NCBI GenBank assembly: GCA_964371505.1
Contig: CAYJNG010000001.1
Coordinates: forward strand, 86-64,085
Length of the DNA: 64,000 bases
Reading direction: 5' to 3'
Source of the DNA: an uncultured Desulfovibrionaceae bacterium
Lineage (GTDB): Bacteria > Desulfobacterota > Desulfovibrionia > Desulfovibrionales > Desulfovibrionaceae
How positions within the stretch are numbered: position 1 is the first letter of the stretch; every line of letters starts with the position of its first letter. Shown here piece after piece: positions 7,965 through 27,218 of this stretch. Position numbers and translations under genes: made by a program. The notes under the pieces were generated by a model. That model made no database searches, was not told the origin of the DNA, and worked only from the letters and a program-made list of their open reading frames with translations.

Positions 7965-8885
7965 TTACATCATGGCAGGGCTAGGTTCACCAAGGTTGCT
8001 CATGGCTAAGGGCATGGCCGGTACCAAGGGTAAGGTCTCTTGTTCTTGGGTGTGACGTTGCGGGGTTGATTTGCTGTCTTGCTTGGTATTGCCATTGGCA
8101 TTTGGTGTGGAATCTTGAGAAGGCGCAAACATTTCTGCACTTTCGGCGCCGTAGAGTTCTTGTAAAAACGCAGGGGTTAAAGCCGAAGAGGGGCCGTCAT
8201 AAACAATTTTACCATCTTTTAAAGCCACGGTACGCGGGCAATATTTAATGGCATAATCCACTTGGTGCAGAGTTACCATGACGGTGATGCCGTCTTTTTG
8301 GTTAATATCAGCTAAAATTTGCATAACGCGGCGAGCAGATTCTGGATCTAACGAAGCAATGGGTTCATCTGCAAGGAGTAGCTTGGCTTTTTGTACAAGG
8401 GCGCGTGCTATGGCTGCGCGTTGTTGCTGACCGCCGGAAAGGGTGGATGCACGCTGATGCGCTTTGGAACCAATGCCCACACGCTGTAACGCGTCCATGG
8501 CAAGGGTTTTATCTTCTTCATGGTACAGGCCAAAAAGGGAGCGCCATAAAGGTGTTCTGCCAAGGGCGCCTAGCATAACATTAGTAAAAACACTTAAGCG
8601 ATCCACAAGGTTGAATTGCTGAAAAATCATGCCGATATTCGTGCGAATATGACGAATTTCACGGTTAATGGCGCCGTTGCTTTGAATGGTTTTACCCATG
8701 CTGACAATATGCCCGCCGTTTTTATCACCACACATAAGGCCACTTACGTGACGCAAGAGGGTAGATTTGCCAGAACCGGAAGCGCCGATAAGGGCTACCA
8801 TTTCCCCTTTTTCAATGGTGAGGGAAATATTGTCGCAAGCTTTTGTGCTGCCAAAGGAGCGAGTAAAATTCTGTATGGTAAGCAT
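7965..8885 (-). CDS. phnC: Phosphonate ABC transporter ATP-binding protein PhnC, with a low-complexity C-terminal tail of about 50 aa
   Basis: Walker [10 protein letters not shown], signature LSGGQQQR and Walker B LLLADEP are present. I set the start at ATG 8885, which has GGAGG 6 nt upstream, rather than the track start at 8966. Confidence 0.85.
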
Positions 8886-9186
8886 GATGTCCTCCGCAAA
8901 ATTGTTATTTAGTGCGGCGCGGTATGCAGCCCCAAAGTTGGGATTCGTACATTTCAACCACGCCACGGAAACTTTTTAGAGGAAAAATGTGGCTGATAAA
9001 TAGCCAAGTGGTGTATGTTTGGTGACGTTTTGTTACATTTTATGTCACATGGAGGTGAGACCTTTGTATATTAAGTTTTTTATTAAAGCATAATTGTAAA
9101 AAATCCTGTATAAATATCTAGTAAATCAGATTATTGTTTTAGTTCGGTATCAAGGTGTAGATAGTTTTTATCTATGCTTGTATGCA

Positions 9187-9262
9187 CCTGTGCTGGTATT
9201 ACATAAAATACTGGCATCAATTGCATCGATGCCAATTGTATTTTATGTAATACCAGCACAGG
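9187..9262. repeat. 76-nt nested palindrome: perfect 25-bp stem around a 26-nt core
   Basis: CCTGTGCTGGTATTACATAAAATAC (9187-9211) is exactly complementary to 9238-9262. The core TGGCATCAATTGCATCGATGCCAATT pairs internally (TGGCAT/ATGCCA). Confidence 0.9.
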
Positions 9263-9308
9263 TTTACTCCTGCATGCTACAAAGATTTCCATGCATAACG
9301 CCAATAGA

Positions 9309-9390
9309 GCTACCTATGAGGATGCTGCAAAAATGTCATTGGTGTCGATGCAATTGACGCCAGCATTTTTGCAGTATCCTCATAGGTAGC
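9309..9390. repeat. 82-nt nested palindrome: 27-bp stem carrying the same core in the opposite orientation
   Basis: 9309-9335 is complementary to 9364-9390 with a single G-T pair. The reverse complement of the loop (CTGGCGTCAATTGCATCGACACCAATGA) matches the 9212-9237 core at 22 of 26 positions. Confidence 0.9.
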
Positions 9391-9512
9391 GCATGTTAAG
9401 GAATAGTTGTTTTTTACCAAGCTAAGACATAGTCATATCATTGAAAATCAATGGACAAGTGCTTTGCTGTAGGTACAGTGTGTATGCTTTGTTTGCTCAG
9501 GGGCATATAACG

Positions 9513-9548
9513 TAAAAAAGGCGAAGGAAATAAACATTTCCCTCGCCT
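9513..9548 (-). terminator. Intrinsic terminator after phnN
   Basis: On the minus strand: GGCGAGGGAAA-tgtttat-TTCCTTCGCC followed by TTTTTT, starting about 20 nt after the phnN stop. Confidence 0.7.
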
Positions 9549-9568
9549 AAAAAGTAGGTAAGAAAGTA

Positions 9569-10168
9569 CTACGCAGATTGTATGGTGCGCATCATGGTAA
9601 TAAAACTTGTAAATTCCTGTAGTGTGCTGTCTAAAGCATGGGAGTTGTCAATGACAATCATATTGGGCGTGGGGGGTAACTCCATGCGGGCCCTTTGCAC
9701 ACGTTTTTCAATCTCCTCGGCGCTTTCTCTGCCTCGTGCTTCAAGGCGGGCTTTAAGGGCTTCGGGGTCAACGCGTATAAGCACTGGTATAAGGCTTGGG
9801 TAGCGGCTTTGCGCTTCGGGTAAATATTCGCGCGAGCCATTAACAAGCACCACGGCGCCGCGCACAAGGCCAGCTTCTACTTCTTGGGTAATGCCGTAGT
9901 ACAGGCCATGGCTTTGCCAATGCATGACATACTCCCCTTGAGCAAGACGTGCAAGGAACTCTTGCTCGGTGCAAGGCAGATGCTGTTCATCCTGACTGTT
10001 GGCAGGTAGGGGGCGGGTGATGTGTCTTTGCACGATAACAAGGCGGCGTAAATGCGGGGCCTCCTGTGGTATGAGGGCGCGTGCCGCGTGCAAAAGAGTG
10101 TCTTTACCAGATCCAGATGCACCCATAAGGTATATGAGCTTACCGGGAGGGGGAAAATCTTGTAACAT
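9569..10168 (-). CDS. phnN: Ribose 1,5-bisphosphate phosphokinase PhnN
   Basis: 199 aa with the P-loop GASGSGKDTLL. It is guanylate-kinase-like in size and sits inside the phn cluster. Confidence 0.75.
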   Translation of the reverse strand: MLQDFPPPGKLIYLMGASGSGKDTLLHAARALIPQEAPHLRRLVIVQRHITRPLPANSQDEQHLPCTEQEFLARLAQGEYVMHWQSHGLYYGITQEVEAGLVRGAVVLVNGSREYLPEAQSRYPSLIPVLIRVDPEALKARLEARGRESAEEIEKRVQRARMELPPTPNMIVIDNSHALDSTLQEFTSFITMMRTIQSA

Positions 10169-10346
10169 AAAATGCCACCGTCTTTAGTAAGATGGTTTGT
10201 AAACATGGGCATAGTACAAAGAATGTTTTTTTTTGTGAAGTAAAAATATGGGAAAAATAGAAGGATTTTTTTAAAATGTTTTTGCTATACATGTGTACTT
10301 TTATAAATACCTTGTTTTATTGTCCACAAATGCACGTCATGAAGAT

Positions 10347-10387
10347 GTGCAGGAGAATCTTTTAGGTGGAAAAGGATTCTCCTGCAC
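10347..10387. repeat. Extragenic palindrome related to 844-897
   Basis: GTGCAGGAGAATCTTTT / AAAAGGATTCTCCTGCAC with one bulged base. It shares the core GGAGAATC(C)TTTT...AAAAGG(A/G)TTCTCC with the 844-897 element. It lies in the 240-bp AT-rich gap between phnL and phnN. Confidence 0.7.
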
Positions 10388-10407
10388 AAAATGACTTTAA
10401 AGATTTA

Positions 10408-25169: not shown

Positions 25170-26276
25170 TTATGTGTTAAGAACTTCATGCCTTTTTACA
25201 CAGTTTTTACACAAATTTGTGGTGGGATTTCCTGCGGCATGCTGAGCGCGAAATTGTATATAATTTTCCTTTTGCCAAATATGCAGGGCGTTTTCTTCAT
25301 TCACATTGCCAAAGAGGCATGTGCTATCTTGCGCCTTTTGTGAGGGTACTTGTAAATACACACAAGGGGAAATGCTACCTTGAGCACTTATGTATAAGCT
25401 TTTTTGAATGTTTTCACGGCAAGCGCGGGCCATATGGGGGCTTGGTAAGGCATAGTGTACGTCTATATGATACTCTTGAGCTTCGGCCTGCACCTTTTGT
25501 AAAAGAGCATGGGCTTTGGCTAAAAGAGCCTTTTGTTCAGGTGTGTCTTTGGCCGTGAGGGCTAAGGCCGCTTGGGCTGCATCGGGGGCGTAATCTAAGG
25601 TGCTAATGATGGCGGCGTGCATGCCAAGTTTGTGTAAAAGCTTGGGTAGAGCAAGCACAGCTTCAAGGCGATCTGCCAATAAAAGGTAGGCCAAGTGAAT
25701 TTCTAGATGTACGGCCATATGTTTTTTGCGCAGCTCTTGAAGCAATAAAATTTTTTCGCATACGGTATCAAAATCAGCCCCCACGCGTACGCTATTGCTG
25801 ATGGCGTCCGTGCCTGCCAAAGAAAAAGCCAGAATATCTATGCCGCTATCTATTATCTTTTTGCAGGTTTTTTCGTGCAAATGCAGGGCGCAAGATGTGG
25901 AGGATACAAGGCAGCCGGCTTTACGCGCAAAGGCCACAAAATCAAAGAAATGCGGGTGTAAGAAGGGTTCTCCCCATCCTTGCAAATGCACGCGCGTGCT
26001 TTGTTTAAGCAAGGGCCACAAATTAGCAAAGGTATGGGCTTGCATATGCTGGCCTTGCCATGTGTGGGCATCAGTGGTGTGTGGGCAGTATGTGCATTTT
26101 GCGGCGCATTGGGAGGTTATTTCCACTTGTAAACAGTCTAGTGGGCGCACTTGTGGTTTAAAGAGCTCTTTTATCATTTCTCCTATGCCGGCTTCCCGCA
26201 GCTCCTTATGGTGTAAAATGTCGCAGGGCTGTGCATAGTTTTGGTGTTGTGGCGATATGGGAAAGGTAAGTGGCAT
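25170..26276 (-). CDS. Radical SAM enzyme with a SPASM/twitch-like C-terminal Cys cluster
   Basis: CAAKCTYC (CX3CX2C), GWGEPF, and the C-terminal pattern ISPCVYL...FGNV...CKNCVK. Confidence 0.8.
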   Translation of the reverse strand: MPLTFPISPQHQNYAQPCDILHHKELREAGIGEMIKELFKPQVRPLDCLQVEITSQCAAKCTYCPHTTDAHTWQGQHMQAHTFANLWPLLKQSTRVHLQGWGEPFLHPHFFDFVAFARKAGCLVSSTSCALHLHEKTCKKIIDSGIDILAFSLAGTDAISNSVRVGADFDTVCEKILLLQELRKKHMAVHLEIHLAYLLLADRLEAVLALPKLLHKLGMHAAIISTLDYAPDAAQAALALTAKDTPEQKALLAKAHALLQKVQAEAQEYHIDVHYALPSPHMARACRENIQKSLYISAQGSISPCVYLQVPSQKAQDSTCLFGNVNEENALHIWQKENYIQFRAQHAAGNPTTNLCKNCVKRHEVLNT

Positions 26277-26285
26277 GGGTATTCC

Positions 26286-27218
26286 TTAAGAGAAAAGGCG
26301 GGCAAGCCAATGAGAAGGTTTTTTAGTTTTTTGTACGTCTGCAACGCGCCATGAGCTTTGTACCAGAGGGAGCAAAGGCTGTGCGCCCCATTTTTCTTTA
26401 AAAAAGCGTATGCCACTGTGTATGCCAAGGCCAAGATTGCATGAGCCATAGCCACGCTGTGCAGCCTCTTGTAATAAGGCCATAAGAAGAGCCTCGGCGG
26501 TGCCGGGTGTGGCCTTAGGGTGGCGAAAGGCAAACATGTAAAAAGCCGTGTGCAGTGAGGTGAAGTCTGCCACGGTGCAGCCCATAAGGGCGCCGCTGTG
26601 CACGTCATAGGCAGAAAATAAGCGCGCTTGCGCTACGTTGCGACAATACATTCCCACACGTTGAAAAATACTGCTCATTTCTTTACTGAGCCCTTGGCGG
26701 CTTACATAGTGGAGCATAAGTTCTTGGTGGGCCCCTGTCCATGCGTGCTCGCCTTGGCTTTGCTCTATGCGTAGGTGCGCTAAAGCACGGCGACACATGG
26801 AAAGCACATGGGGCAAGTTTTTTTCTTCTAGGGGCAGGGGTAAAAAATAATAGGCATCGTTATAGCAGGTTGTTTCATGCGGCGTACAATGAGGGTGCAA
26901 GGGAGGACGCAGGGGGGCAAGCACGGTAATATGCTCTATGTGCGGGCTTTGCTGCAAGTGCTGTATGCACAGATGTAGTTGGGCTTCATGGTCGGGTGCC
27001 AAGGAGAAGGCATGGGCAGGCCAAGATGAGCAATCGTAGGCCACAAGGGTGGCATGCCCTGCGTTTTCATGCACAAGAAAGTTACCCACGCTATAACTTG
27101 TGGCTGCGCTAACGGCCTGTACATAGGGTATAAGTTGTTCCGGCACCAAGGCTTGTAAGCTGTATTGCTGCGCATGCATGGCAGATAAAGGGGTATGAAG
27201 GGGGCTGTGCTGCGGCAT
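26286..27218 (-). CDS. FemABX/MprF-C (DUF2156)-like GNAT-fold protein, paralogue of the N-terminal half of the upstream gene product
   Basis: 310 aa. It shares DAYYFL and LGLGIHSGIRFFKEKWGAQP...SW with the 27221-29152 product. The G-x-x-FK-x-KWG ending resembles aa-tRNA-dependent transferases; this is recalled, not searched. Confidence 0.45.
   Translation of the reverse strand: MPQHSPLHTPLSAMHAQQYSLQALVPEQLIPYVQAVSAATSYSVGNFLVHENAGHATLVAYDCSSWPAHAFSLAPDHEAQLHLCIQHLQQSPHIEHITVLAPLRPPLHPHCTPHETTCYNDAYYFLPLPLEEKNLPHVLSMCRRALAHLRIEQSQGEHAWTGAHQELMLHYVSRQGLSKEMSSIFQRVGMYCRNVAQARLFSAYDVHSGALMGCTVADFTSLHTAFYMFAFRHPKATPGTAEALLMALLQEAAQRGYGSCNLGLGIHSGIRFFKEKWGAQPLLPLVQSSWRVADVQKTKKPSHWLARLFS

Follow-up and report, generated by a model that had tools for sequence, protein, structure and literature searches.

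Paired long hairpins in a phnN-phnC spacer are probably inner modules of a decayed IS1595-type MITE

The two large palindromes in the phnN-phnC spacer of an uncultured Desulfovibrionaceae bacterium are very probably the inner hairpin modules of one non-autonomous MITE of about 312 bp, at positions 9126-9437 of the window (the whole 64,000-nucleotide stretch of DNA analysed here), with ends of the IS1595 type. The initial annotation of this stretch had listed a MITE or REP-like element family among several possible meanings of the palindromes, and the idea of such a family is borne out: the core recurs in the same genome and in its relatives, where copies bounded by terminal inverted repeats (TIRs) were found. 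The kind of element, an IS1595-type MITE, is already known; full-text literature searches returned no description of the present family, which is apparently undescribed.

Hairpin A (9186-9263) consists of a perfect outer stem of 26 bp, a 3-nt bulge (ATT on the + strand), a 10-bp tip stem with one A·C mismatch, and a 3-nt loop. A repeat search gives its arms as 9186-9211 and 9238-9263, 26 nt each and 100% complementary, around a 26-nt loop; the perfect stem described initially therefore stands, although its length of 25 bp does not. Hairpin B (9309-9390) has the design of A inverted, with a 27-bp outer stem that includes one G-T pair, just as first described (arms 9309-9335 and 9364-9390, 27 nt, 96% complementary). 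The 26-nt 'loop' is itself a stem, in which TGGCATCAAT and ATCGATGCCA are paired except for one A·C, and each hairpin totals about 37 bp, interrupted by a bulge of 3 nt and closed by a 3-nt loop. The folding energies range from -51 to -60 kcal/mol, with z = -10.7 to -13.8 relative to shuffled sequences. In hairpin A the two strands differ slightly in folding energy, in favour of - (-53.8 vs -51.0 kcal/mol on +); in hairpin B the difference is much larger and favours + (-60.3 vs -47.3 kcal/mol on -), because + has G·U mismatches where - has A·C. The only open reading frames crossing the hairpins are spurious ones.

The conserved part of each hairpin is its tip of about 40 nt. In A this spans 9205-9244 and reads AAAATAC-TGGCATCAATTGCATCGATGCCA-ATT-GTATTTT; in B it spans 9330-9369 and, according to the repeat search and pair tables, is the A tip reverse-complemented with two compensated pair changes. 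Together the two tips make a 40-nt inverted repeat (9205-9244 vs 9330-9369) at 83%, with 85 nt between its arms. That the palindromes share a 26-nt core in opposite orientation, at 22 of 26 positions, was correctly noticed at the outset: the cores of A and B differ at four positions, and the 13-mer TCAATTGCATCGA has two exact occurrences in the window, one per strand, against a chance expectation of 0.09. The outer stems were described as unrelated, which is true inside the window but not across the family, where both stem types can be recognised as diverged paralogues. The tip of hairpin A is 100% identical to that of the copy on contig C59 of the same genome, and 98% identical to copies in other species. 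A sigma-54 promoter within the core (TGGCA...TTGCA) was considered and rejected, the GG-to-GC spacing being 9 rather than 11 (by eye).

The extent of the element was established by collinear alignment with TIR-bearing copies. In local alignments the window element matches two copies from the congener G045, L170 at 84% over 270 columns (window 9165-9429) and L186 at 79% over 294 columns (window 9129-9415), with a score of 310 where shuffled controls reached 30 at most. The window copy has a subfamily-specific insertion and its A-stem sequence in common with L170 and L186, and the linker between its hairpins (9264-9308) can be aligned with the linkers of G045 copies. The remaining copies in the window's own genome have different stems and fall into a second subfamily. 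The boundaries at 9126 and 9437 were placed by alignment with complete G045 copies. The left TIR (9126-9149, + strand), a degenerate TCAGATTATTGTTTTAGTTCGGTA, agrees with the consensus TGTGGCTATTGCCTTAACTCAGCA at 14 of 24 positions (alignment, counted by eye), and the right TIR (9415-9437, - strand), aligned with the complete copies, is a degenerate TACCAAGCTAAGACATAGTCATA; at about 14/24 per end, both are roughly 60% conserved, and given these weak ends it is full-length collinearity on which family membership of the window copy is based. We found no target duplication at the window copy, whose 8-bp flanks (ctagtaaa vs tcattgaa) are equal at 4 of 8 positions. The weak ends and the missing duplication together argue that this copy is old, and it is probably also immobile. 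Loss of the duplication is expected for an old copy and does not discriminate between explanations.

The draft genome that holds the window (2.5 Mb in 264 contigs, 45% G+C) also has the core on contigs C39, C59, C55, C134, C227 and C233, usually as an inverted hairpin pair about 100 bp apart. Similarity between copies extends over about 260 bp, with 82.7% between C59 and C39, and several copies are at contig ends, as repeats that break assemblies would be expected to be. All copies in this genome are intergenic. Their neighbours encode an efflux subunit, a MarR-type regulator, an ammonium transporter, a glycosyltransferase, Lon, a flagellar protein, a dihydroxy-acid dehydratase and yajC/secD.

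A search for the core in the genome and its relatives had been proposed in the initial annotation. We counted matches to a 20-nt tip pattern, allowing one mismatch, in 33 genomes of the genus, and found 10 in the window's genome, 84, 29, 14, 4 and 2 in five congeners (G045, G002, G013, G018 and G017, respectively), and three single matches besides; a reversed control pattern gave none in the genus. Across 373 genomes from 71 other genera of the family the tip gave 1-2 matches per genome, nearly all mismatched, which is the chance level. Genomes from other families of the order, 16 in all, gave no matches in a DNA search, a scan of a genome contig collection with a 17-base pattern gave chance single matches in unrelated taxa, none with hairpin context, and a scan of viral contigs likewise gave chance matches only. 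In the genomes searched, the family is thus restricted to some members of a single genus, with a patchy distribution. Among these it seems to have moved between species: element copies of the window's genome and G045 are 84% identical, whereas the PhnN-like proteins of the two (putative orthologues) share 51% identity and PhnC homologues from elsewhere in the genus share 73-79%. That the copies are more alike than these proteins suggests recent horizontal spread of the MITE family.

The anatomy of the family is clearest in G045, from which we aligned 16 complete hairpin pairs together with the window copy. Complete G045 copies are 298-304 bp long with sharp ends in the alignment, and the family order is 5'-TGTGGCTATTGCCTTAACTCAGCA, hairpin A, linker, inverted hairpin B, TGCTGAGTTAAGGCAATAGCCACA-3'. 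The TIRs of complete copies are 24 bp, with the consensus TGTGGCTATTGCCTTAACTCAGCA counted in five genomes; a 20-nt end pattern (three mismatches or fewer) has 48 occurrences in G045 and 14 in G002, and a control pattern has none. Direct repeats flank three of nine complete G045 copies (TAATAAAAT, TATAAAAA and TTCCTTA), in AT-rich DNA; they are 8-9 bp long and in one case 7 bp. The A and B units are inverted relative to one another with their tips 121-128 nt apart, both in the window's genome and in G045, where the A-linker-B arrangement is repeated dozens of times and multi-copy forms are nearly all bounded by TIRs. Half-elements with hairpin A alone or hairpin B alone also exist.

A hairpin tip can also occur without recognisable inverted-repeat ends. 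One such site is orthologous in two species (L029 in G018 and L033 in G013); there a hairpin directly follows a stop codon and has been kept in both species with compensatory changes, so persistence through speciation is possible, while a second hairpin at the same site has decayed in one of them. In G013 the tip is also found within a separate repeat family with other flanks. The hairpin may thus be an independent unit, and these occurrences count to some extent against the MITE reading. A separate observation is that the tip is more strongly conserved than the transposon ends, which is unusual for a MITE and which transposition alone does not explain.

The family has a candidate parent. When metagenome contigs were scanned for the family end sequence, we recovered the 1188-bp contig QMCE01116562.1 (L235). 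It contains a 994-bp insertion sequence (IS) with a single gene, whose product has the domains Zn_ribbon_IS1595 and DDE_Tnp_IS1595 (PF12760 and PF12762). The right-hand end of this IS agrees with the MITE family consensus at 26/26 positions and its left-hand end at 30/34, and an 8-bp duplication, TAAAATAA, flanks the IS. Transposases 75-88% identical to that of L235 belong to elements with similar ends and 8-bp duplications (for example TCGCAATA on L259). By analogy with the IS1595 family, an IS1595-type transposase would be supplied in trans, presumably binding the terminal repeats, and the element would insert into AT-rich DNA with duplication of 8 (sometimes 9) bases. We infer this transposition chemistry from what is known of the family; the repeats, the duplications and a matching IS were directly observed. 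The L235 IS has little non-coding DNA, about 65 bases on one side of its gene and hardly any on the other. With no room for them there, the hairpins were not derived from the IS, and are instead cargo of the MITE.

A possible objection to the MITE reading is that no IS1595-type transposase was found in the window's genome or in the 32 other genomes of the genus, all of them fragmented, MAG-like assemblies, and that the link between the L235 IS and the genus consists of shared ends only. The flanks of the L235 IS, and the same flanks joined into an empty site, had no match in any genus genome, and an exact look-up of the L235 transposase returned contig L235 alone. The listed transposase homologues are nearly all on contigs of about 1 kb, which is what an IS collapsed in a short-read assembly would yield; as contigs of this size would be discarded in binning, this would explain its absence from binned genomes. 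Other candidates were set aside: rve and DDE_Tnp_1 as mobilising enzymes are absent from the window's genome, the MITE ends are missing from the IS contigs of congeners, and solo inverted-repeat matches in G045 and G002, considered as possible autonomous copies, adjoin ordinary genes only.

We collected 119 distinct hairpins from seven genomes. Column identity to the majority base is 0.89 in the tip and 0.49-0.50 in the outer arms, and most tip columns are at least 90% conserved, including those of the A-run and the T-run. The outer stems of about 25 bp diverge among copies yet stay paired: of 24 outer pairs, 19.8 are Watson-Crick when both arms are from the same copy, vs 11.7 when the arms are from different copies. 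In a gapless subset (n = 68), 89.9% of positions are paired, compared with 68.3% in 500 shuffles (maximum 69.9%) and 34-42% when the arms are slid by 1-3 positions. Members of this subset were selected to have a single register and 17 pairs or more, so that the paired percentage is inflated, although the double changes are not. Double changes were found in 27 of 36 pairs of this same subset, and three or four Watson-Crick types occur at most outer positions. RNAalifold, applied to a MAFFT alignment of the 119 hairpins, recovered just nine tip pairs because the diverged arms were misaligned; we used the register-based counts with shuffle and slide controls instead.

The A and B types are distinguished within the tip by positions 40-41/55-56, which are CA/TG in one type and TG/CA in the other. 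An A·C mismatch occupies position 44/52 in 117 of the 119 hairpins (G·U on the other strand), and it is the G·U-bearing strand that carries a GNA loop. Counted over all hairpins in the 'core' orientation, the non-Watson-Crick cells comprise 293 A·C and 91 G·T. Given this A·C bias, it is the opposite strand (5'-TCGATGNAATTGA) that has the wobble pairs, and it usually folds better. The bias points to a single-stranded RNA or DNA form of a defined strand; the favoured strands of A and B within a pair are opposite.

The window element itself is most likely a passenger. It is situated between a PhnC homologue (an ABC ATPase; 7965-8885, - strand) and a PhnN homologue (guanylate-kinase-like; 9569-10168, - strand), in a spacer of 683 bp (8886-9568), which agrees with the gap of some 680 bp downstream of a phnN terminator that was reported initially. 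The terminator-like hairpin after the phnN-like gene (9519-9548, - strand; 13 pairs followed by TTTTTT in a terminator scan) is outside the element, 81 bp past its right end. Upstream of the phnC-like gene, and 77 bp outside the left end, is the repeat motif GTGACATAAAATGTAACAAAACGTCAC (9022-9048, - strand), possibly a Pho-box-like sequence, which is recognisable upstream of phnC in six other species of the genus, with or without the element. The element would have landed between the phnN terminator and the phnC promoter motif, and since neither signal is interrupted we take it to have little or no role in phn control.

The orthologous phn clusters of six congeners all have a phnN-phnC spacer without the element. 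In G042, phnC follows phnN after a spacer of 157 bp; in G015 and G046 the two are separated by a Phosphonate-bd (phnD) gene, consistent with the initial remark that a phnD gene would normally sit there; and in G018 other inserted DNA, about 1.4 kb of it, lies between them. The window spacer contains no phnD remnant, and a phnD homologue is found elsewhere in the genome (C87:5773-6708, 61% identity). Mobile DNA thus explains the large phnN-phnC gap.

These comparisons bear on two locus-specific explanations offered initially. One was that the palindromes are a dedicated operator, presented on cruciform or hairpin DNA, for a regulator of the phosphonate genes. The dyad symmetry of the tip and the location between two phn transcription units would suit an operator, but the copies adjoin efflux, ammonium transport, flagellar, protease and other unrelated genes, the spacer lacks them in the six congeners (as in the short one of G042), and a protein would have to read different bases in different hairpins, given the compensatory changes of the tip stem (TGGCA/TGCCA vs TGGTG/CACCA). 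We regard a phn operator as very improbable.

The other made the two cores paired recombinase sites, with the short segment between them inverting to switch phnC expression. The 40-nt inverted repeat upstream of phnC, with 85 nt between its arms, would be in keeping with such a switch. First, however, the same arrangement is repeated genome-wide in G045, at dozens of unrelated intergenic sites. Second, inversion would produce chimeric hairpins with one A arm and one B arm, and there are none among the 119, the poorly paired ones being truncated or carrying indels. Third, the genome has just two tyrosine recombinase genes, of Xer size, on other contigs (C2 and C42). Fourth, the conserved phnC promoter motif is outside the segment that would be inverted. 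An invertible switch is hardly credible on these grounds.

A further alternative to the MITE reading is that the hairpins are an independent family of the REP or REPIN kind, which spread as single-stranded DNA by means of a RAYT-type tyrosine enzyme or another hairpin-recognising enzyme and was captured by a MITE. Inverted doublets of two related hairpin types are also the form of BIMEs and REPINs, the tip occurs at some sites without inverted-repeat ends (one of them the site retained with compensatory changes in G018 and G013), and the strand bias of the mismatches, 293 A·C vs 91 G·T, resembles the G-T pattern of REPs (PMC3733652). The defining mark of a REP is a GTAG tetranucleotide, conserved at one of the ends of its palindrome (Di Nocera et al. 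2013, PMC3733652). Here, GTAG is present in the 3' arm of just 38 of 119 hairpins (25 B-type, 12 A-type and one untyped), where it is paired inside the stem, and it is absent from hairpin A of the window. No RAYT/Y1_Tnp gene (PF01797) was found in the incomplete assemblies of the window's genome and of G045, the genome richest in copies; PF01797 matches in G004, G002, G017 and G048 do not track element copy number. The units, at 76-82 nt, are AT-rich and far longer than REPs, and the multi-copy forms of G045 are, as noted above, nearly all enclosed by TIRs. A reading as GTAG-REPs was dropped, with the defining GTAG and RAYT both wanting, and we consider an independent REP-like family of any kind quite unlikely.

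Accepting that the hairpins travel in a MITE, what they do there is a separate question. Both window tips are picked up by a terminator scan, that of A on the - strand and that of B on the + strand, and bidirectional terminators or transcript-end hairpins would, from this pattern match, be the most economical function. The tips may then insulate the insertion, acting on single-stranded nucleic acid; this is a tentative proposal within the MITE reading, to which we give real weight but which we would stop short of calling probable. Alternatively, the hairpins might present an RNA or single-stranded DNA motif that is recognised by a protein, or might have no function, their pairing being kept by template-switch 'correction'. 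Long quasi-palindromes can stay perfect without selection through template switching during replication.

A related alternative would make the hairpins functional RNA or transcript elements (bidirectional terminators, mRNA-end stabilisers or small RNAs) that are kept by selection, with the MITE as their vehicle; this is compatible with the MITE reading. The conserved part is exactly an A-run, a stem-loop and a T-run, both tips being terminator-like, and the nearly invariant wobble position with a GNA loop on the G·U strand, the strong covariation, and the hairpin retained after a stop codon in two species are all what such a role would predict. Several observations pull the other way. The gene at the two-species site reads the hairpin in its weaker (A·C) orientation, and the second hairpin there has not been kept in both species. 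Within the long stem the T-run is itself base-paired to the A-run, which does not suit a simple terminator, and template switching could keep the long stems perfect in any case. Searches of Rfam gave sub-threshold matches only, to microRNA precursor models, in effect recognising 'a long hairpin', and no family above threshold. On balance, selection for an RNA function seems to us possible but rather unlikely. Of the structured RNA that the initial annotation had also offered, a locus-specific device is not supported, while some RNA role of the hairpins may still be envisaged.

More speculative still is the idea that the hairpin with its 40-nt tip is a module maintained by selection and acting as a single strand, either REP-like without RAYT or terminator-like, which is independent of the transposon and has repeatedly hitch-hiked in IS1595-type MITEs. 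We think this unlikely. If it were true, hairpin and MITE would form a functional partnership, in which the hairpins insulate the insertion site and so lower the cost of insertion, or else aid mobilisation.

For annotation, the palindromes are best treated as ordinary mobile DNA and not as a phosphonate-specific switch or operator. The parent IS was visible only on unbinned metagenome contigs of about 1 kb, and the autonomous partners of MITEs are systematically lost from MAGs. The hairpins, of which there are about 120 variants, are also a natural data set for asking whether pairing is kept by selection on RNA or single-stranded DNA or by template-switch correction.

Among known systems, the closest are MITEs derived from the IS1595 family, as reportedly defined by Siguier, Gagnevin and Chandler in 2009. 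Like these, the present elements are short and non-coding, have TIRs matching an IS1595-family IS, are associated with 8-bp duplications in AT-rich DNA, and occur in many intergenic copies. Unlike them, they carry an internal doublet of long hairpins (about 220 bp) that is absent from the parent IS, none of the genus genomes has an assembled parent IS, and the tip is better conserved than the ends.

REP, BIME and REPIN elements (REPINs with their RAYT transposases being reportedly the subject of Bertels and Rainey 2011) likewise have two related inverted palindromes with a linker, an intergenic location, compensatory stem changes and a strand-biased G-T pattern. The present family differs in having no consistent GTAG and no RAYT gene, in units about three times longer and AT-rich, and in being placed inside inverted repeats of the DDE type.

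The Correia elements of Neisseria are MITEs with built-in promoters, terminators and hairpins cleaved by RNase III. They resemble the present family in that the transcript of a MITE forms long hairpins and can alter or insulate neighbouring transcription. Their hairpins, however, are the terminal repeats and their target duplication is TA, whereas here the hairpins are internal modules of an element with an 8-bp duplication.

The copy of the MITE family in the window (9126-9437), a non-coding transposon of about 300 bp with IS1595-type ends and two inverted hairpins, is 84% identical to its counterpart in another species of the genus (locus L170, G045:C16), whereas the PhnN-like proteins of the same two genomes are only 51% identical and may not be orthologues. 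This disparity between the two species suggests that the family has moved horizontally or spread recently.

At one site, family hairpins are found in two species. In both G018 (L029, G018:C232) and G013 (L033, G013:C177) one and the same conserved gene is followed, directly after its stop codon, by two hairpins in tandem. Both genomes retain the first hairpin, in which compensatory changes have occurred; the 5' arm of the second has been lost in G018. G013 furthermore carries the same 40-nt hairpin tip inside a different repeat (L034, L035, L038 and L039), which has stems of the form TTTCAGCACTACCC... and is flanked by direct repeats such as GAGGTAGGGGAnAGAAAGA; ends of the IS1595 type were not recognisable at these loci.

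Within G000, the draft genome to which the window belongs, a further copy of the element lies on contig C14, within approximately 26190-26390, where a stretch of N, standing for withheld or unassembled bases, hides part of it. The gap 5' of phnN contains a palindrome (window 10346-10388) with 18-nt arms that are 94% complementary; this is a terminator-like hairpin of the ordinary kind and has no relation to the element family. A search of this whole genome (95% complete) with the dsrA model TIGR02064 gave no match.

The phn cluster of the window is without phnD, and a phnD homologue (61% identical) is encoded on a different contig of G000 (C87:5773-6708). In G015 a Phosphonate-bd gene (L156:467-1468) occupies the exact position between phnN and phnC, and G046 has the same order of phnN, Phosphonate-bd gene and phnC. 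The orthologous spacer of G018 (L143, G018:C11) is about 1.4 kb long and holds two small overlapping ORFs and one membrane-protein-like ORF, with neither the element nor phnD present.

On the minus strand, about 140-160 bp 5' of the phnC start, lies the motif GTGACATAAAATGTAACAAAACGTCAC (window 9022-9048), which contains TGTnACA-like repeats with a period of roughly 11 bp. A counterpart is recognisable in the phnC upstream regions of six other species, and the motif, which resembles a Pho-box-type activator site, may be one.
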